From assembly GCA_963422645.2 (NCBI GenBank), contig CAXXVO010000009.1, positions 288,001 to 352,000 of the forward strand: DNA of 64,000 nt, written 5' to 3'. The DNA comes from Alphaproteobacteria bacterium (GTDB lineage Bacteria > Pseudomonadota > Alphaproteobacteria > UBA828). The notes under the pieces were generated by a model. The model was given only the letters and a program-made list of their open reading frames with translations. It was not told the origin of the DNA and made no database searches. Positions 1,426-33,809 of this stretch are shown here, in pieces. Each line of letters opens with the position of its first letter. The stretch's first letter is position 1. A program made the translations under genes and the position numbers.

Positions 1426-2115
1426 ATGACGGATAGCCCGCTCATCCTCGTGATCGAAGACGAACCCTCGCTGACGACCCTGCTCCGTTACAATCTCGAG
1501 AGTCACCGGTTCCGCGTTGCCTCGATTGAGAACGGCGGCGACGCGATGAGCACGATCGCTTCGACCAAGCCCGATCTGGTGCTGCTCGACTGGATGCTGC
1601 CCGGAGTCTCCGGGATCGAGATTTGCCGCAAGATCCGGCGCGACCCCGAGACCCACAACCTGCCGGTCATCCTGCTCACCGCACGCGGCGAGGAAAGCGA
1701 CCGCGTCCGCGGCCTCGACTGTGGCGCCGACGATTATGTGGTCAAGCCCTTCGTGATTTCCGAACTCATCGCTCGCATTGGCGCGGTGCTGCGCCGGGCT
1801 GCGCCGACGAGCGCGGCCCAATCGCTCGCCAGCGGCGACATCACAATGGACCTCGCCAGCTATCGCGTCAGCCGCAGCGGGCGCTCGATCCACCTGGGGC
1901 CGACCGAGTACCGCCTGCTGCGCCATTTCATGGAGCATCCGGGCCGGGTGCTCTCTCGTGACCACCTGCTTGAGGCGGTGTGGGGGCGCGCGGTGCATAT
2001 CGAGCAACACACCGTGGACGTCCACGTTCGCCGTCTGCGCCAGGCGCTTAACGGTGACGGCGAGGTCGACGTGATCCGGACCGTGCGCTCGGCGGGCTAC
2101 GCCTTCTCCGCCTAA
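1426..2115 (+). CDS. phoB: Phosphate regulon response regulator PhoB
   Basis: Receiver domain (LLDWMLPG) plus OmpR wHTH (LGPTEYRLL, TVDVHVRRLR, IRTVRSAGY); adjacent to pstS. Confidence 0.9.
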   Translation: MTDSPLILVIEDEPSLTTLLRYNLESHRFRVASIENGGDAMSTIASTKPDLVLLDWMLPGVSGIEICRKIRRDPETHNLPVILLTARGEESDRVRGLDCGADDYVVKPFVISELIARIGAVLRRAAPTSAAQSLASGDITMDLASYRVSRSGRSIHLGPTEYRLLRHFMEHPGRVLSRDHLLEAVWGRAVHIEQHTVDVHVRRLRQALNGDGEVDVIRTVRSAGYAFSA

Positions 2116-2126
2116 CGCCGCCCCCC

Positions 2127-2739
2127 TCAGCCGAACTCTGGCACCGTCGCGACCGCGCTCTCGCGCTCGTCGATGGCAGCCTGCCAGCGGGCGATGTTGG
2201 TCCTCGGGGCCAGCAGCGTCTCGCCCTCCGGCGTCATCTTCAGATAGTGAAGGACGGGCAGCACCATATAGTCCGCGACCGATGCCTCGTCGCCGGCGAA
2301 GCAGGTCCGGCCATCCAGTGCTCCCTCGAGCGCGACAAGCGCCTTGTCGGACTTGGGCACGCTGCTCTCCACCAACGCCTCGTCGGGCTCACCGCCCTGC
2401 GCGGGCACGACCAGGCGCTGCAGCACGATGTCGATCGCCGGGCGGTAGAGATACTGGATGAAGACCGACGTCCATTGCCAGCAGAGGGCGTTGGCGAGCG
2501 GGTCGGCCGGCTGCAGGGGCGGCCCGTCGAACGCGTGGTCGATGTAATTGCAGATCGCCAGCGACTCGTACATGCGCACGTCGCCGTGGGTCATGGCCGG
2601 CACCGACCCCCAAGGCTGCATCGCCTTCTGCTCCGGTGACTGGGGTGCGAGCGGATCGAGCTCGTAAGGGACTCCCTTCTCCATACACGCCATGCGGCAG
2701 GTGCGGACATAGGTGCTCAGCGGTGTGCCATGGATAATC
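2127..2739 (-). pseudogene. Glutathione S-transferase, 3' part, interrupted by IS66
   Basis: GST motifs (PWGSVP, YESLAI..YI, SVADY); the true N-terminus lies beyond the IS at 5201-5219. Confidence 0.88.
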
Positions 2740-2841
2740 GTAACTGCCCAGGTCTGATTCTGCCGAGCACTCGGACGTGATGGATTGATGGTTCTGACCA
2801 GCCAGGGGTCAGGCGGCGCTTTCCCGGAGCAGCGCAGGATT

Positions 2842-4383
2842 TCAGAAGCGCAATACGGGGATCAGCTGGATTGGATCGGGGTGCGCCAGGGTTTCGAGGA
2901 CATTCCAGCGCTGTTTTCGAGCGGTGGCGATGACGGATCGCAGGTTTGCGAAGTCGCGGGCGCCTTGTATCGAGCGGAAGCCGCCTGAGATTTTCTGGCG
3001 CAGCTTGCCCATTCGGAGGTCGCGCTCGGCCTCGTTGTTGGAGAAGGGGGTTCGCGGATCGGTGAGGAAGCGCAGGCACCCCTCCTTGTACTTCTGGAGT
3101 CGGAGGGCGAGGTTGTGACCGATGCGGCGCTTTTGTCGTCCGCGCTTTCCGGTCTGGAGCGGTGGCATTTCTTCGTGAGAGGCGATGGCACGTTCGAGGA
3201 TGCGGTCCCAGGCTCGCGAGATGCGGGCCACCAGTGAGGCGGGCACGTCGCGGTCGTTCTTGTGGGCGAAGCGGGCGGCTCTGTTGGCACGGATGAGGAG
3301 CCGGTGCGTGCTCGTTGCCCAGTCTTCCTTCTCGATCTCGATGAGGGCTTGGAGCTCGCGCAGGTGATGGGCGTTGCAGGCCCCGTGGCGCACGCCCTCG
3401 AGAGCGAAGTAGGTGGCGTAGTCGTCATGGATGACGATGCCGTTGAGCTTCTCGTCGATGTGGCTGCGCCCGGTGGCGACGCGCAGGATGGTGAGCAACG
3501 GGGTGCACAGCACATGGAGCCAATGGGTCCGGGCGGCGATGCGGATGCCGGTCTCGTCGAGGTGTTTGACTGGGGCTGCGGTGCGGATGATCTCCGCGAG
3601 GCGATCGAGGAAGCCCTCGAAGCGCCGGGCGGTGCGCCTTCCCATGGCGACGATGGTGGCTGTTGAGAGCTTGACCGCGAAGAGGTCGCTCATGACCTCG
3701 GCGACCCGCTTCTCGGGAATGAACTGAGCGTGCAGCAGGTAGGTCACCCACGCGGTGATGCGCGGCCCGTATTGGACCGGTGCGCTCACGCCGTTCGGGA
3801 AGACGGCTGTCGTCACGGTGCCGCAGGCAGCGCAGAGGCAACGATGGCCGCGATGTTCGGTGACCTCGAGGGGCTGCGGCTCGGGCACATCGAAGACCTG
3901 CCGGCAGACGGGGGCTCCGTGACGGTCAGCGTCCGACAGCGGCGCGCCGCAGCCCTCACAGGCGGACGGATCATGATCGACGACATGGTCGGGCGTCGCG
4001 GTCCGCTCCAGGGTAGTTCCCTTGTGGCCCGGCTGGCCGCCACTGGGCCTGTCGGACTTGCCGCGCTGGCTCCGGGTGCGCTTCTCCCGGTCACCGCTCT
4101 TCTTCTTCAGACCGTCGCTGGCCGGCGGCTTGGAGCTGGTGGTGCTGTCGAGCGCGGCGCTGCGCTCGAGTTCGGCGATCCGCTCGCGCAAGCGGGCGTT
4201 CTCCCGCTCCAGCGCGTCGTTCTCCTTGACCAGGGCCGCGCTCAGGCGCAGCAACCCCTGGCCCCATTCCCGAATGGCTTTGACGGCGGTCATTGCGAAG
4301 GATTGTGGGGTGAAAAGGTCCTGCAGGCACGCGAAGGCCTCGTCGTGGGCAGCGAGGTCCTCGTGCCAGCGCGACACTGTCAC
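2842..4383 (-). CDS. tnpC: IS66 family DDE transposase
   Basis: Leucine zipper, SSKPPASD, Zn finger CEGC..CAAC, HLDETG, HDDY, CNAHHLREL, NNEAERDLR; GTG start inferred at 4383 overlapping the MTase stop. Confidence 0.93.
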   Translation of the reverse strand: MTVSRWHEDLAAHDEAFACLQDLFTPQSFAMTAVKAIREWGQGLLRLSAALVKENDALERENARLRERIAELERSAALDSTTSSKPPASDGLKKKSGDREKRTRSQRGKSDRPSGGQPGHKGTTLERTATPDHVVDHDPSACEGCGAPLSDADRHGAPVCRQVFDVPEPQPLEVTEHRGHRCLCAACGTVTTAVFPNGVSAPVQYGPRITAWVTYLLHAQFIPEKRVAEVMSDLFAVKLSTATIVAMGRRTARRFEGFLDRLAEIIRTAAPVKHLDETGIRIAARTHWLHVLCTPLLTILRVATGRSHIDEKLNGIVIHDDYATYFALEGVRHGACNAHHLRELQALIEIEKEDWATSTHRLLIRANRAARFAHKNDRDVPASLVARISRAWDRILERAIASHEEMPPLQTGKRGRQKRRIGHNLALRLQKYKEGCLRFLTDPRTPFSNNEAERDLRMGKLRQKISGGFRSIQGARDFANLRSVIATARKQRWNVLETLAHPDPIQLIPVLRF

Positions 4384-5048
4384 GAACCCTCGTCGGCCTC
4401 GACGGCCATGATCGCGGCCAGCACCGCCAGGCGTTCGCCCGCCGGCATGGCCTCGTAGCGCCGGCCCCAGTTGGCCGCCTTGCGCTTGATGCACTGGCGC
4501 TCGGTGAAGTTCCGGCCGGCGAAGCTCGCCCAGTGCACCCGGTCAGGCGCGAAGTTGAACCACACGACCTCGGTCCGCACCTGGGCCTGGGTCGTCACCT
4601 GCAGCGCCAGCCGGCGCCAGCCCGCCAGCAGCTCGTCATAGAGCGCAGACGGGTGGCCCGAGACCATCACCTGGCAGGGCAGACCCTTGAGCAGTTCGAG
4701 GAGCGCGACGTGGTCGGCCTCCTCGTACTCGAAGCGGTAGCGCTGCGACGAACGCCGGGTCGCGTGCAGATAGGGCGGATCGCTGTAGACCAGCTCCGGG
4801 CCCAGAAACGGGAACGAGGCCAGGAAGGAATGGGCGCAGCCGGGCACCAACTCCACCGGGTAGTCGCAGCCAAAGGCCTCAAGCGCCCGCTCGTCGCGGT
4901 CGATCCCGATCGAGCGCATGGCCGCAGGCTTGCGCTTCATCAGCGCCCCGCCCCCAAGATGGCTCTCGATATAGACAGAGTGCCGCGGCATCAGCGCAAT
5001 CAGCGCCTGGCTCAGACCGGTCGTCGCCTTCGACCCGAAATACCCCAC
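4380..5048 (-). CDS. Compact Dam/D12-class N6-adenine DNA methyltransferase
   Basis: YFGSK (motif X), ESHLGGGA (SAM motif I), GIDRD (motif II), catalytic DPPY, VMVSG, RTEVVWFN; GAGGAG RBS. Confidence 0.85.
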   Translation of the reverse strand: MGYFGSKATTGLSQALIALMPRHSVYIESHLGGGALMKRKPAAMRSIGIDRDERALEAFGCDYPVELVPGCAHSFLASFPFLGPELVYSDPPYLHATRRSSQRYRFEYEEADHVALLELLKGLPCQVMVSGHPSALYDELLAGWRRLALQVTTQAQVRTEVVWFNFAPDRVHWASFAGRNFTERQCIKRKAANWGRRYEAMPAGERLAVLAAIMAVEADEGS

Positions 5049-5076
5049 CGGCTGCTCCTCTCATGCGAGAGTGCAA

Positions 5077-5105
5077 CCCATAGGCGAGAGAACCTATACA
5101 GTCAA
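5077..5105 (-). promoter_or_regulatory. Putative sigma70 promoter for the MTase-tnpC operon
   Basis: TTGACT, 17-bp spacer, TATGGG on the minus strand inside the IS end. Confidence 0.45.
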
Positions 5106-5200
5106 GCGGGGATCAACGACGCGCCGACGGCGAAACGGCACCGACGGCAAGCAACATCAGCACGCACTCAGAACTGGCGGCGGGGTACCTGGGTAGTTAC

Positions 5201-5219
5201 GGATAATCAGTGTCGCCAT
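5201..5219 (-). pseudogene. GST 5' fragment (MATLII)
   Basis: Removing the IS and one TSD copy restores MATLIIHGTPLSTYVRTCRMACMEKG; GGGAGAG RBS upstream. Confidence 0.85.
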
Positions 5220-5401
5220 CGTTCGCTCTCCCACTCCGATCGGGTCGGCAGGGCCCTCCCCCGGCCGCGCGCGCCTATCTTGCATATCCCGCTCGGGGTT
5301 GCACCGGGTCCGCACCGTGAACGGGTCGTCGGTCGAGTTGTTCGCGCGCAGGCCGCTGACTATGCTCGCGGCAGCAGGATGGCCCAGCGCGGAGACGCGG
5401 C

Positions 5402-7648
5402 ATGCTGACGATTACCGGCTATCCCGACCGGATCAGCGTCCGGCCGGGCGAGACCATCAAGTTCATGGTCAACTGCGAGCATCCGACCTATCAGGCGGAC
5501 ATCGTGCGCCTGATCTGCGCGGACGACACGCCCGCCGGGCCCGGCTTCAAGGAACGACCGGTCCGCACGCCGGTGAGCAAGCGCCACAAGGGGCGCAGGC
5601 AGGCCATCCACGCGGGCTCCTACGCCCTGGTGGAGAGCCGGCCGCTGCTGGAAACGCTCGGCAGCTTTACGGTTCAGGCCATGATCTGGCCGACCACGCC
5701 CGGCAAGGGCGAGCAGGGCATCGTCAGCAAGTGGGACCCGCGCAGCCGGTCCGGCTTCGCGCTCGTCATCGACGAGGCGGGCTCGGTCGCGCTCCGCCTC
5801 GGCATGGCGGACGGCACCGTGGAGCCGGTCTCGGTCGGCAGGCCGCTGCTCGAGCGCCACTGGTACCTCGCTGCGGCGAGCTACGATGCCGAGTCCGGCC
5901 AGGTCACCGTCTATCAGGAAGCGCTCCTGCCCTACGCGCGGGCCAACGACGGCGGCACGGCAAAGCGCAAGCTCGGACCTGCGGCGGCGGGGAACGGCGC
6001 GCCGATCGTCATGGCGGGGACCTTCAAGCGGCGCCAGAAGGGTCGCACGCTGGTGGACTCTCTCTACAACGGCAAGATCGATTCGCCCCGTCTGGTCGGC
6101 CGCGCTCTAGATCGTCTGGAGATCGAGCGCATGCGGAACGAGGCGGTCCCGGCCGGGCTCGCGCCCGACATCCTCTGCGCCTGGGATTTCTCGCGCGACA
6201 TCACGTCGATCAGGATTTCCGACCGTTCTTCCAACCATTGCCACGGCGAAATCGTCAACCTGCCCGCGCGCGGCATGACCGGGTGGAATTTCTCGGGCGA
6301 GGAGATGTGCTGGCGCCACGCGCAGCATGAGTACGGCGCCATTCATTTCCACGACGACGATCTCTACGACGCGGGGTGGGGGGTGGACTTCGAATGGACC
6401 CTGCCTGCGCGCATGGCGAGCGGGGTCTACGCCGCGCGGCTCAAGGGGGCCGAGGAATACGTACCTTTCGTGGTGCTGCCGGCGCCGGGACGGGCTGCGC
6501 GCATCGCCTTCCTGCTGCCGACGGTCGAGTACATGGCCTATGCCAACGAGCATCTGGCCTTCGACGGCTCGCTCGGCGAGCTCCTCACTGGCCAGCTGCC
6601 GGCGCTCAACGCGCAGCAGCTCTTTCTCAACGAGCATCGCGAATACGGCGCGTCGCTCTATGACACCCATTCGGACGGCAGCGGTGTCTGCTATTCGTCC
6701 CGGCTGCGCCCCATCCTCAACATGCGGCCCAAGGCGGAGACGCCCTGGGCCTGCGCCGGCGAAGACTCGACCAACGCGCGCGAATTCATCCTCGACATGT
6801 ACGTGGAAGACTGGCTCACGCACCTCGGCTTCGAGCACGACGTCATCACCGACGAGGACGTCCACCGCGAGGGCATCGACCTCCTAAAGCCCTACAACGT
6901 GCTGATCACCGGCGGTCACCCGGAGTACTACTCGAAGGCCATGCGGGACGCCGTGCACGGCTTCACCCAGCAGGGCGGCCGGCTGATGTATCTCGGCGGC
7001 AACGGCTTCTACTGGCGTGTCGCCATGCACAAGGAGCTGCCAGGCGTGATTGAGGTGCGCCGCTGCGAGGCCGCGATCCGCACCTGGGAGGGCGACCCCG
7101 GCGAGTACTATCACAGCTTCACGGGCGAATACGGCGGGATCTGGCGCCATCAGGGGGACTTCGCACCGCAGCGGCTGGCCGGTGTCGGCTTTGTCGCCGA
7201 GGGCTTCGACAAGTCCTCCTACTACCGGCGCATGCCAGGGAGCTTCGACCCCCGCGCGCGCTTCGTTTTCGAGGGAATCGGCGAGGACGAGATACTCGGG
7301 GACTTCGGCTATCACGGCGAGGGCGCGGCCGGCAACGAGCTCGATGCCACCGATTCCCGCCTGGGCACGCCCCCGCACGCGCTGGTGCTCGCTCGCTCGG
7401 AGGACCACACCGACCTCTATCTGGTGGTGAACGAGGAGGTGCTCGTGAACCATGCCGGCCTCGGCGGCACGGAGCACGAGAAGGTCAAGGCCGACATGGT
7501 CTTCTACGAGACGCCGAACGGCGGCGCGGTGTTCTCCGTCGGCTCGATCTGCTATCCCGCGAGCCTGCCGTGGAACGGCTACGACAACAACATCGCGCGG
7601 CTCACGACCAACGTGCTCCGCCGCTTCGCCGACCCAACGCCTTTCTGA
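5402..7648 (+). CDS. N,N-dimethylformamidase large subunit family protein
   Basis: N-terminal GYPD..SV.PGE, LamG-like domain, AIHFHDDDL, YMAYANE, SLYDTH, GHPEY, GNELD. Confidence 0.85.
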   Translation: MLTITGYPDRISVRPGETIKFMVNCEHPTYQADIVRLICADDTPAGPGFKERPVRTPVSKRHKGRRQAIHAGSYALVESRPLLETLGSFTVQAMIWPTTPGKGEQGIVSKWDPRSRSGFALVIDEAGSVALRLGMADGTVEPVSVGRPLLERHWYLAAASYDAESGQVTVYQEALLPYARANDGGTAKRKLGPAAAGNGAPIVMAGTFKRRQKGRTLVDSLYNGKIDSPRLVGRALDRLEIERMRNEAVPAGLAPDILCAWDFSRDITSIRISDRSSNHCHGEIVNLPARGMTGWNFSGEEMCWRHAQHEYGAIHFHDDDLYDAGWGVDFEWTLPARMASGVYAARLKGAEEYVPFVVLPAPGRAARIAFLLPTVEYMAYANEHLAFDGSLGELLTGQLPALNAQQLFLNEHREYGASLYDTHSDGSGVCYSSRLRPILNMRPKAETPWACAGEDSTNAREFILDMYVEDWLTHLGFEHDVITDEDVHREGIDLLKPYNVLITGGHPEYYSKAMRDAVHGFTQQGGRLMYLGGNGFYWRVAMHKELPGVIEVRRCEAAIRTWEGDPGEYYHSFTGEYGGIWRHQGDFAPQRLAGVGFVAEGFDKSSYYRRMPGSFDPRARFVFEGIGEDEILGDFGYHGEGAAGNELDATDSRLGTPPHALVLARSEDHTDLYLVVNEEVLVNHAGLGGTEHEKVKADMVFYETPNGGAVFSVGSICYPASLPWNGYDNNIARLTTNVLRRFADPTPF

Positions 7649-31517: not shown

Positions 31518-33387
31518 GTAACTGCCCAGGTTCTTGCTGTGAAAATTCTCTGGGATTCGGCACAACGCTACCCACGCGACGCCCGTGTGCTCCTCTGGGG
31601 TCGCCGGGTTTCACAGCTCACGATGCCCCTCTTGCGGACTGCGACCGGTAAGCTACCCCGATGTGGCCCGAAGTCCGCCCGCGCGACGGGCACCGATTTT
31701 CATTCTATGGGGTGGTCCAGCACGGCGTCGACCATGATCGTTTATGAGAATGGCTCCGCTGTTGGAGAACCCGTGCCAGGTGAGCTTACGCGCACTTGAC
31801 GGTGGCGATGAGCCGATCCGATGGGCTGGTCAGGGCTTCGATGATATTCCAGCCCTGCTTTCTGGCGGTGGTGATGACGCTGCGCAGGATGGCGAAGTTC
31901 TCGGCCCCCTGCGCGGACCGGAAGCCCCCGGAGATCTTCTGGCGCAGCTTCATCATCCGAAGGTCGCGCTCGGCCTCGTTGTTCGTGAACCCGACCTCGA
32001 GGTCGATCAGGAACCGGAGCACCGCGCATTTGTGGTCGCGCAGCCTCAAGGCCAGATTGTGACCGATCCTTCGCTTCCGGCGCTTCTTCCTCTTGCCAGG
32101 CGAGAACGGTGGTTGGCTCTCGTGAAAGGCCAGCGCATCGGCGATGATCTCGTCGTATCGGCGCTCGATCAGCGCCACAAGCCTCGCCGGAACGGCGATA
32201 TCCTTGTCCAGCGCGATGCGGGCGGCGCGATTGGCTCGGCGCAGGAGCTGCTGCATCCGCCGGGCCCAAGCCTCCCCTTCGATGTCCACCAGCGCCTGCA
32301 ACTCCCGCAGGTGATGGGCGTTGCACAGGCCGTGCTCCACCCCTTCCATCGCGAAGTACGGCTTCCAGTGATCGTGCACGACGATGCCGGAGACACCCGA
32401 GAGCAGGGCGCCGCGCTTGCCGCTGACCCGGTACGCCGCCAGCAGCGGCGTGCAGATCACATGAAGCCACTGCGTCTGACCGCCGATCCGCAAGCCGGTC
32501 TCGTCCATGTGTTTCACCCGCGCCGTGCCCGCCGCCAGGTCCTGTATGTGCAAGGCCGCGTCCCGCAAGCCGCTCGGCCGCCCTCTCGCTCATCGTCGCC
32601 AACGTCGCAGCCGTCACCGGCGCGCCGAAGAGCTCGGCCATCACCTGCGACAGCCGATCCTCCGGCAGGAAGTGAGCGTGCTGAAGGTAGACCGCCACCC
32701 CGGCAATGCGCGGGCCGTACTGCACCGGCGCCGACACCCCGTCGGGGAACGCCGCCCGGGTCACCGTCCCGCAATGCCCGCAGCACTTGGCATGCGCCCG
32801 GTGCTCGGTCACCTCCAGGGGGCTCGGCTCGGGCAGATCGAACACCTGGCGGGCGACGGGCGTTCCCGCCCTGGCCGCGTCCGAAAGCGGCGAACCGCAT
32901 CCCTTGCAGGAAGCCGGGACGTGATCCTTCACCCGATCCGGGTGATCGGCGCGGCGCAGCGTCTTGCCCTTGTGGCCGGGCTGGCCACCGGGCTTGCGGC
33001 CCGATTTGCCGCGCAGGCTTCGGGTTCGCCGCTTCGAATTCGGCTTCCTCAGCCCATCGCTCGAAGGCGGCTTGCCGCTGTTGCCGCTGTTGAGGCCGAG
33101 ACGGCGCTCCAACTCCTCGATGCGCTCGACGAGACGCGCGACTTGCTCTTCCAGCCGCGCGTTCTGCTGCCGAAGCCAGGCATTTTCCTCCCGAAGCCGG
33201 GCGTTCTCCTCCTCCAGGCGGGCGATCTTCTGCGCGGGCGTTTCGGGCGCTGCTCCCGTCGAAGGGCCGCGCGGCGACTCGGGATTGCTCATGTCGTTGT
33301 TGAGTCATTTCCCGAAATTCCCGTCAAGCCCTTTCCACCAACTCCGAACGAGAAACGCCTCAATCCACTGGCCCAAAATGACAAATC
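31518..33387 (-). mobile_element. IS66 copy 2 (far end interrupted)
   Basis: IR GTAACTGCCCAGG at 31518; a second IR in the same orientation at 33388 marks a nested insertion. Confidence 0.85.
31786..33292 (-). pseudogene. tnpC: IS66 transposase with +1 frameshift near 32568
   Basis: N-half has SGKPPSSD and a Zn finger; C-half has MDETG, HDH, CNAHHLREL and NNEAERDLR in another frame. Confidence 0.88.
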
Positions 33388-33800
33388 GTAACTGCCCAGG
33401 TACCCCCTCTCTCTTATGGAACAAGCCAGTTCCTTTTGCGTCAACGCCCCCACGCCGCGGGGGTGCCTACTCTCTTGAGCGCGAGAGGATGATGAACGCC
33501 GCGTCGCGAACAAGATGAGAGGACAGCGATACTCAGGATGAGCCGGAGAAGTTCAGGAGCGCAGTATAGGGATCAGCTGCATCGGTTCCGGGTGCGCCAG
33601 GATTTGCAGGATGTTCCAGCCTTGCTTTCGAGCGGTGACGATGACGCTGCGCATTCCGGCGAAGTTGCAGGCGCCTTGCAGGGAGCGGAAGCCGCCTGAG
33701 ATCTTCTCATGCACTTTGTTCATACGGATGTCACGCTCCGCCTCGTTATTCGTGAACGGCGTGCGCAGGTCGGTGAGGAAGCGCAGGCAGCCCTCCTTGA
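33388..33800 (-). mobile_element. IS66 copy 3 fragment (IR plus transposase C-terminus)
   Basis: GTAACTGCCCAGGTACCCC at 33388; 33553-33800 encodes KEGCLRFLTD..NNEAERDIR..KISGGFRS, paralogous to copy 1. Confidence 0.85.
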
Positions 33801-33809
33801 GCGCGCGCG

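Follow-up and report, generated by a model that had tools for sequence, protein, structure and literature searches.

An insertion sequence (IS) of the IS66 family, found in a 64,000-nucleotide stretch of an alphaproteobacterial genome, carries a gene for a predicted DNA adenine methylase, with a promoter of its own, directly in front of its transposase gene. The stretch (positions 288,001 to 352,000 of contig CAXXVO010000009.1, assembly GCA_963422645.2) is called the window here, and the element occupies positions 2740 to 5200 on its minus strand. The cassette is made up of a sigma-70-type palindromic promoter, a hairpin in the 5′ untranslated region (5′-UTR), and a gene for a methylase of 222 amino acids (aa), with the transposase gene directly behind it. 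Because the same cassette rides in unrelated IS families, it looks like a working part of these elements and not like chance cargo. A compact methylase with its own promoter is a standard front module of IS66-type elements that has been passed to IS701 and ISKra4 elements, and it occurs in dozens of copies per genome and on hundreds of metagenome contigs.

The element, its insertion site, and its copies

The element is 2461 bp long and, like all of its features, is read on the minus strand, so that it runs from 5200 to 2740. Its ends enclose two co-oriented genes, as follows:

2732-2739, no strand: first copy of the target-site duplication, GGATAATC, identical to 5201-5208 over a perfect 8 bp
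2740-2753, minus strand: right inverted repeat, at the transposase end, GTAACTGCCCAGGT, pairing with 5187-5200
2842-4383, minus strand: tnpC, encoding an IS66-family DDE transposase of 513 aa, with a GTG start (NF033517, PF03050, DUF6444)
4380-4383, minus strand: GTGA, the 4-nucleotide (nt) overlap of the methylase stop and the tnpC start
4380-5048, minus strand: gene for a small Dam-like N6-adenine DNA methyltransferase (predicted), 222 aa, with a GTG start and DPPY at residues 90 to 93
5187-5200, minus strand: left inverted repeat, at the methylase end, GTAACTACCCAGGT (as reverse complement)
5201-5208, no strand: second copy of the target-site duplication, GGATAATC

An earlier note on this DNA, made from the sequence without database searches, had described two inverted repeats and a perfect 8-bp duplication enclosing exactly two genes. 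This description stands: the repeats are 14 nt long with one mismatch, and the same 8 bp is found on both sides. The note was also right to place a gene for a DPPY methylase first, with its TGA overlapping the GTG of the transposase gene; the plus strand reads tcac at 4380 to 4383, which is GTGA on the minus strand, and the two codons therefore overlap by 4 nt. Its reading of the whole as an IS66 element with a methylase in the place of tnpA and tnpB is borne out by the family models. TnpC scores 284.3 bits against NF033517 (cut-off, 180; E value, 1.5e-84) and 132.3 bits against PF03050 (cut-off, 23.1; E value, 3e-38), with DUF6444 at its N terminus. No tnpA or tnpB accessory gene lies within the element ends, which hold only two long co-oriented open reading frames (ORFs), and the first of these, of 222 aa, matched methylase models and no IS66 accessory model.

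The element interrupts a glutathione S-transferase gene, the parts of which lie on either side of the duplication:

2127-2731, minus strand: 3′ part of the interrupted gene (Pfam GST_N_3 and GST_C)
5209-5219, minus strand: 5′ end of the interrupted gene (start codon, MATL...), running on into the duplicated 8 bp

In-silico excision of the element together with one copy of the duplication restores an open glutathione S-transferase frame (MATLIIHGTPLSTY...).

The source genome (5.9 Mb in 23 contigs) holds 14 full-length copies of the window element at >95% identity, termed family A. Eleven of these have their own perfect 8-bp duplication, and both ORFs are open in 12 of them. The earlier note had named a one-off capture, or other genomic copies lacking the methylase, among the outcomes that would speak against it; the methylase gene is present in all 14 copies. 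Across the genome, the methylase gave 91 hits by tblastn and 88 matches by genome search. A second family, B, encodes a methylase 86% identical and a TnpC 76% identical to those of family A, and the methylase gene lies directly upstream of 49 long TnpC hits in the bins of 65 to 79% identity. Family C is a 1895-bp single-ORF IS66 element with the same 14-nt ends, a TnpC that is 58% identical, and 68 long TnpC hits. The 14-mer GTAACTGCCCAGGT is an end common to families A, B, and C, and it is also shared with relatives elsewhere. An example of family C lies outside the window (G000:C10:83090-84984), and degraded fragments are found in the window at 31822 to 33801.

The element shares with the IS66 family its DDE transposase models, its 8-bp duplication, and ends beginning with GTAA, the last being typical of IS66 terminal inverted repeats. 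It differs from the canonical three-gene IS66 in having neither tnpA nor tnpB. As tnpC is the only transposition gene, it resembles the kind without these genes, which we take to be the ISBst12-type group, a name and definition that reportedly go back to Gourbeyre et al. in 2010; family C is the plain single-ORF form. The nearest named relatives are ISGst1 and ISGka4 of Geobacillus; transposases annotated to these element families are 34 to 37% identical to the window TnpC over residues 16 to 508, and the closest transposase in PLSDB is 47.5% identical. To the ISBst12-type plan, the window element adds the promoter-methylase cassette in front of tnpC and an N-terminal extension of about 47 aa on TnpC. 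This extension (window 4243-4383), which begins in the methylase stop codon, is found in families A and B but in neither family C nor the plasmid-borne IS66 relatives, for which alignments start at residues 48 to 97. Alignments of TnpC with its relatives from the genome collection begin at residue 1. Overall, the element is intact, has been mobile recently, and belongs to a large single-transposase (ISBst12-like) IS66 lineage.

Among 18 genomes of the same genus, the methylase was found in only three, with 1, 2, and 16 matches, compared with the 88 in the source genome. This patchy distribution is the pattern of a horizontally moving element. It also bears on the possibility that the benefit lies with the host, in that a methylase spread by ISs might alter host gene expression or immunize the cell against invading restriction-modification systems. 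The very large number of copies in the genome and the occurrence of expansions in genomes of the metagenome-assembled (MAG) type fit such an effect, and orphan methylases are known regulators. However, presence in 3 of 18 congeners resembles a selfish element more than a host trait, the insertions break host genes (here, the glutathione S-transferase gene), and a benefit to the host would leave the fixed place of the methylase in front of the transposase unexplained. We therefore consider an effect at the host level improbable as the reason for the cassette.

The methylase and its control region

The assignment of the first gene to the Dam/D12 class, made in the earlier note, holds in part: the DPPY motif, the S-adenosylmethionine (SAM)-binding motif, and a Dam-like fold are all there, but the protein does not reach the cut-offs of Pfam and TIGRFAM and is devoid of a recognition domain. 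It scores 15.6 bits against PF02086 (cut-off, 22) and 27 bits against TIGR00571 (E value, 3.2e-6; cut-off, 114.85). PHROGs and PADLOC label it as a DNA or type II methyltransferase. A search of the PDB with a profile of 48 homologues found DpnM (1.3e-10) and EcoDam (6e-6). In the DpnM alignment, positions 2 to 61 and 80 to 159 of the query profile correspond to DpnM residues 16 to 73 and 183 to 267, which takes in motif I and motifs IV to VIII and skips about 110 DpnM residues of the target-recognition domain. This domain, which in Dam lies between motifs III and IV, is absent from the methylase in the profile alignment as well as in the AlphaFold2 model (mean predicted local distance difference test score, 91.9), where a Rossmann core is followed by a two-helix hairpin at residues 181 to 221. 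With this model as the query, Foldseek placed EcoDam (4rtj; E value, 1.4e-7) and DpnM (2dpm) at the top, with query-normalized TM-scores of 0.50 to 0.54.

SAM-binding motif I, the glycine-rich loop after strand 1, is present and aligns with motif I of DpnM, and DPPY at residues 90 to 93 is the catalytic motif IV. Among the 48 homologues, which are 38 to 87% identical, D90, P91, P92, G32, H23, H113, G178, and R184 are invariant, and Y93, E28, and G34 are nearly so. Thus, the protein shares DPPY, the SAM-binding motif, and the Rossmann core with the Dam/D12 class (EcoDam, DpnM, and T4 Dam), whereas it differs from this class in its scores below the family cut-offs, in lacking the recognition domain of about 100 aa, and in a TM-score of only about 0.5. 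Judged by these alignments and by the model, it is a Dam-type enzyme that nature has reduced to a minimum, with the recognition domain missing, and the conserved motifs indicate that it is probably an active adenine methylase. The specificity of such an enzyme would be of interest both to the study of methylases and for use as a tool. Relatives are numerous in the representative library (5931 clusters at E ≤ 1e-3 and 465 at E ≤ 1e-30). A predicted homodimer scored 0.28 against a mark of 0.42, which counts neither way.

The control region upstream of the methylase gene contains the following:

5058-5071, minus strand: 5′-UTR hairpin CTCTC-GCAT-GAGAG over the GGAG ribosome-binding site, read from the sequence
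5077-5105, minus strand: cassette promoter, with the -35 element TTGACT at 5100-5105, a 17-nt spacer, and the -10 element TATGGG at 5077-5082
5080-5097, minus strand: promoter palindrome, with the ATAG half-site at 5094-5097, a 10-nt gap, and the CTAT half-site at 5080-5083, which overlaps the -10 element

A promoter in front of both genes had been predicted in the earlier note, and the comparison with relatives supports it through the conserved TTGACT and TATGGG, although a sigma-70 consensus scan of 2700 to 5260 returned no promoter and no terminator; the cassette promoter was detected solely through the comparison. In the upstream regions of 16 lineages, TTGAC is followed after 3 bases by ATAG and, after 10 more, by CTAT overlapping the -10 element. 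The consensus of 93 distinct upstream sequences is cTTGACAaCATAG-N10-CTATgCT, and TTGAC-N3-NTAG-N10-CTA is found in 84 of them. The ATAG half-site is as well conserved as the -35 element and forms with CTAT the inverted repeat (c)ATAG-N10-CTAT(g). The region equivalent to the hairpin is also conserved in the alignment of upstream regions; for the hairpin itself, we only infer a role. In the closest plasmid relative (L091), the same unit, ATAG-N10-CTATGCT, occurs twice upstream of the methylase gene, where there is no transposase gene, which suggests that the control element belongs to the methylase.

The earlier note had also pointed to a GATC beside the -35 element and, by analogy with the control of ISs by host Dam, to a regulatory role for it. 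The site exists, at 5111 to 5114, but the analogy is unsupported. GATC is not rare (465 occurrences in the window, where shuffled sequence gave 409 on average, with 15 in the element), and the alignment of upstream regions shows that it is not conserved at that place in relatives. It was dropped as a candidate regulatory site.

The operator-like palindrome in the promoter would also suit a protein that acts without methylating, with the Dam fold repressing or helping the transposase by binding the palindrome or the ends of the IS. Binding is a known means by which certain methylases repress the promoters of their own genes, and a conserved basic two-helix hairpin at the C terminus (G178, R184, and an IKRKA motif) takes the place of the missing recognition domain. 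However, the strict or nearly strict conservation of DPPY and of the SAM-binding glycines in homologues down to 38% identity argues for catalysis. Furthermore, the transposases behind the cassette belong to three unrelated families whose ends differ, so that a role as a specific cofactor is unlikely. We give a methyl-independent regulator or cofactor little credence.

Carriers of the cassette and relatives on plasmids

In the genome collection, 131 stretches encode a relative of the methylase, and 80 loci from 24 assemblies were analyzed. Pattern matching in metagenomes gave 596 matches, 510 of which code for a relative; 80 were analyzed, of which 66 have at least 600 nt downstream. The IS-borne methylases form a clade 66 to 98% identical to the window protein. 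The linkage to IS66 elsewhere that the earlier note's reading implied is found in 72 of the 80 genome loci and 58 of the 66 metagenome loci. The former figure comprises 71 loci with an IS66 tnpC directly downstream and one (L087) with a truncated tnpC; two further loci (L077 and L078) are a truncated IS66 remnant. In the other six, from three Paracoccaceae/Rhodobacteraceae assemblies, the partner is an IS701-family transposase (NF049999 at 4.5e-92). The downstream partners in the 66 metagenome loci are as follows:

IS66 tnpC: 58 of 66 loci, truncated in one
IS701: 2 of 66 loci
ISKra4: 1 of 66 loci (L154; NF033572 at 1.8e-81)
ORFs without a family: 3 of 66 loci
Solute-binding protein gene: 1 of 66 loci
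Nothing downstream: 1 of 66 loci

Where a transposase partner is present, its gene is always downstream of the methylase gene and co-oriented with it. One of the IS701 carriers (L082), of which a single genome has three copies, is a clean element of 2.78 kb, bounded by perfect inverted repeats of 18 bp and flanked by 3-bp duplications. At the nucleotide level, it resembles the window element only across element positions 118 to 839, to which the alignment of upstream regions adds the promoter; this restriction of the similarity to the cassette region indicates that the cassette passed between the families. Three divergent IS66 elements (L085, L086, and L089) have a methylase 68 to 69% identical to that of the window and a TnpC only 27 to 31% identical, and their own inverted repeats enclose both genes. 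The cassette has therefore been exchanged among IS66 lineages and has also entered IS701 and ISKra4 elements. The earlier note had missed these IS701 and ISKra4 carriers, as well as the portable palindromic promoter, the relatives on conjugative plasmids, and the sibling IS without a methylase.

Several other apparent carriers were rejected. An IS630 gene at L077 is the neighbor of a truncated IS66 remnant, because what L077 has in common with L078 amounts to only 828 nt (the left end of IS66, the methylase gene, and a few tnpC codons). The candidate IS91 carrier at L087 has the methylase gene followed by the truncated IS66 tnpC, which is 82% identical to that of L085. A 447-aa ORF at L133 had no family hit, has a low-complexity look, and is probably not a gene. 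On one metagenome contig, the methylase gene is followed by a 451-aa ORF (L152:1293-2648) with no Pfam or NCBIfam hit, which the protein Atlas puts near DUF6399 clusters (score, 0.97), some of them with Mutator-type transposase domains; as a lead only, it may represent a further transposase family that uses the cassette. In L082, a 96-aa ORF lies between the left end and the cassette on the opposite strand (L082:3472-3762, minus; DUF3024 at an E value of 3e-4, below the cut-off). For several carriers assigned to unusual phyla, the evidence is a short contig binned into a MAG, and their taxonomic assignment is therefore weak; carriers on long contigs include those in Binatia (a 6-Mb chromosome) and Planctomycetota (a 25.8-kb contig).

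ISs with passenger genes are described as transporter ISs (tIS) in the accessible parts of PMC9330008 and PMC7986276, and methyltransferases are named among such passengers, in IS220 and the IS1380 family, in that of PMC11891212. The methylase is likewise a gene without a transposition function that lies inside the inverted repeats and moves with the element, as the 14 full-length copies show. It differs in that a single clade of methylases, together with its promoter, turns up in many copies and in no fewer than three IS families (IS220 being compared by description only), always upstream of the transposase gene and under purifying selection. The element thus fits the published tIS category; what appears to be new is this lineage and the recurrence of the cassette across IS families. 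Literature searches, whose scope did not include ISfinder or REBASE, found no description of an IS66 element or other IS lineage with this methylase, nor of the recurrence of one promoter-methylase cassette across IS families.

The existence of passenger-carrying ISs, with methyltransferases among the named passengers (PMC11891212, accessible part), is what might be said for a chance hitchhiker, that is, a functionless one-off capture that was amplified along with the IS. This reading is already contradicted by conservation and recurrence, and we regard it as scarcely credible. The ratio of nonsynonymous to synonymous substitution rates (dN/dS) of the methylase gene is 0.14 to 0.31 in eight comparisons with relatives, the IS701-borne copy included, so that the gene is kept under purifying selection, and both ORFs have stayed open in most full-length copies (12/14). 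Furthermore, the cassette recurs in divergent IS66, IS701, and ISKra4 elements, and relatives are encoded by 510 metagenome matches.

Beyond the ISs, relatives of the methylase were found in 198 PLSDB plasmids, all at <60% identity, and 134 of these plasmids are conjugative. Upf31.0 of the IncP-1 plasmid pBP136 is 42.9% identical over residues 1 to 220 (99% of the length; E value, 1e-48), and a relative from a Xanthomonas plasmid is 53% identical; the full-length plasmid relatives span 43 to 53%. Inspection of four plasmid contexts showed genes for a relaxase, a primase, or zincin-like and SprT-like proteins in the vicinity, with no transposase gene beside the methylase gene. The accessible part of PMC4245530 lists Upf31.0 under “unknown functions.” The plasmid proteins belong to the same family as the IS-borne ones, have a similar size (about 220 to 235 aa), and also lack a recognition domain, but their genes are single-copy backbone genes without an adjoining transposase gene.

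These relatives speak for an alternative in which the methylase has no part in the control of transposition and is cargo, an antirestriction “passport” that methylates cell, plasmid, or phage DNA in advance for the next host. That the full-length relatives are backbone genes of largely conjugative plasmids agrees with this, as does the spread of the IS-borne clade across several phyla at 86 to 94% identity (on long contigs, for example, in Binatia and Dehalococcoidia). An enzyme without a recognition domain could also have a short, frequent target, and the cassette works with any transposase. However, cargo could sit anywhere, whereas the methylase gene is always upstream and co-oriented in three IS families and, in the window, overlaps tnpC. 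A single methylase would guard against one specificity only, copies of the IS clade on plasmids were not found in PLSDB, and 88 chromosomal copies far exceed any protective need. On balance, we consider protection as the sole function unlikely.

A possible control circuit

The usual view of an IS is that of a transposase gene flanked by two ends and controlled by factors of the host, Dam among them, and to our knowledge, methylation control of transposition has so far been known only as a mechanism imposed by the host. For IS10, IS50, and IS903, adenine methylation by Dam gates the transposase promoter, according to the accessible part of PMC9296519. The methylase described here is encoded by the element and not by the host.

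A possible function for the cassette is that of an expression module. The transposase gene would have no promoter of its own, and TnpC would be made from the methylase transcript, in the A/B-type sublineage by termination-reinitiation at GTGA. The methylase would shut off its own promoter by methylating or occupying the palindrome. Methylase and transposase would be produced in a burst on unmodified DNA, either upon arrival in a naive cell or just after replication, after which both products would be held low in trans for all copies. The methyl mark may also shield the carrier DNA from matching restriction enzymes, a role proposed for the plasmid-borne relatives. Such feedback logic would work with any transposase, which would account for the portability of the cassette. 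The fixed upstream, co-oriented place in three IS families fits an expression module better than pure cargo, and among 45 methylase/TnpC ORF pairs of the A/B type from other genomes, 39 retain the 4-nt overlap of stop and start.

From these sequence features, we tentatively propose, with somewhat less than even confidence, that an autoregulated methylase cassette both promotes expression of the transposase and keeps it in check, and that it may, in addition, guard DNA against restriction. More doubtful is the full form of this proposal, in which the cassette would be a portable “arrival switch,” a self-encoded epigenetic circuit that fires on un- or hemimethylated DNA and then silences all copies in trans.

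Several observations weigh against the proposed circuit. Family C elements of the same genome carry no methylase gene, and their expansion without it indicates that the cassette is not needed for transposition or for expansion; these elements might use methylase supplied in trans, or they might show that the methylase is dispensable. In five family A copies, the cassette promoter is broken by another element between the ATAG half-site and the -10 element, so a broken promoter is tolerated in this genome. The palindrome could bind a host factor or be a mere feature of the promoter. In the divergent IS66 lineages, the methylase and tnpC genes are separated by 31 to 132 nt without overlap, and translational coupling is therefore not general. 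Contigs 88 to 99% alike span most of both genes in two RNA libraries (X15 and X16), and the junction between the genes is bridged by one contig of X16, but these libraries may hold DNA, so that the contigs prove neither the transcript nor its ends and are weak evidence; bins lacking coverage carry no information. With regard to the restriction shield, the search of PLSDB found no plasmid-borne copy of the IS-borne clade.

Should the methylase mark DNA and also act back on its promoter, these elements would carry their own epigenetic control of transposition and possibly a restriction shield. Were the cassette an arrival switch, unrelated IS families would share a built-in control of copy number and timing, and prokaryotes would have in it an equivalent of the adenine methylases that retrotransposons of eukaryotes have acquired. 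Retrotransposons of the long terminal repeat (LTR) and DIRS types encode prokaryote-like adenine methyltransferases, according to the accessible part of bioRxiv 10.64898/2026.05.21.726589, in which neither “insertion sequence” nor “transposase” occurs. As far as that part of the source goes, the likeness is that different classes of transposable elements have repeatedly come to carry a Dam-like methylase, and homology to the cassette is not part of the comparison; the retrotransposon enzymes are eukaryotic and act in a chromatin context.

The five insertions into the cassette promoter of family A are at the identical base, after TATAG at element position 105/106 (e.g., G000:C9:125980-126127 and C10:125343-127860 and upstream of C8:779634 and C13:104604, all outside the window). 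The inserted sequences measure 148 nt (a pair of 74-nt units), roughly 1 kb, roughly 2.4 kb, and 2518 bp, and all end in GAGGTCAGGAAGTCTGAG, a motif with 246 occurrences in the genome; the one of 2518 bp has ends that are inverted and contains an ORF of 436 aa. They represent a second abundant family of ISs or miniature inverted-repeat transposable elements that has repeatedly hit the methylase promoter. The genes next to the insertion site in the window are ordinary and unrelated to the element. They encode a protein resembling the beta subunit of N,N-dimethylformamidase (5402-7648, plus strand; PF20254 at 2e-95) and an OmpR-type response regulator (1426-2115, plus strand).

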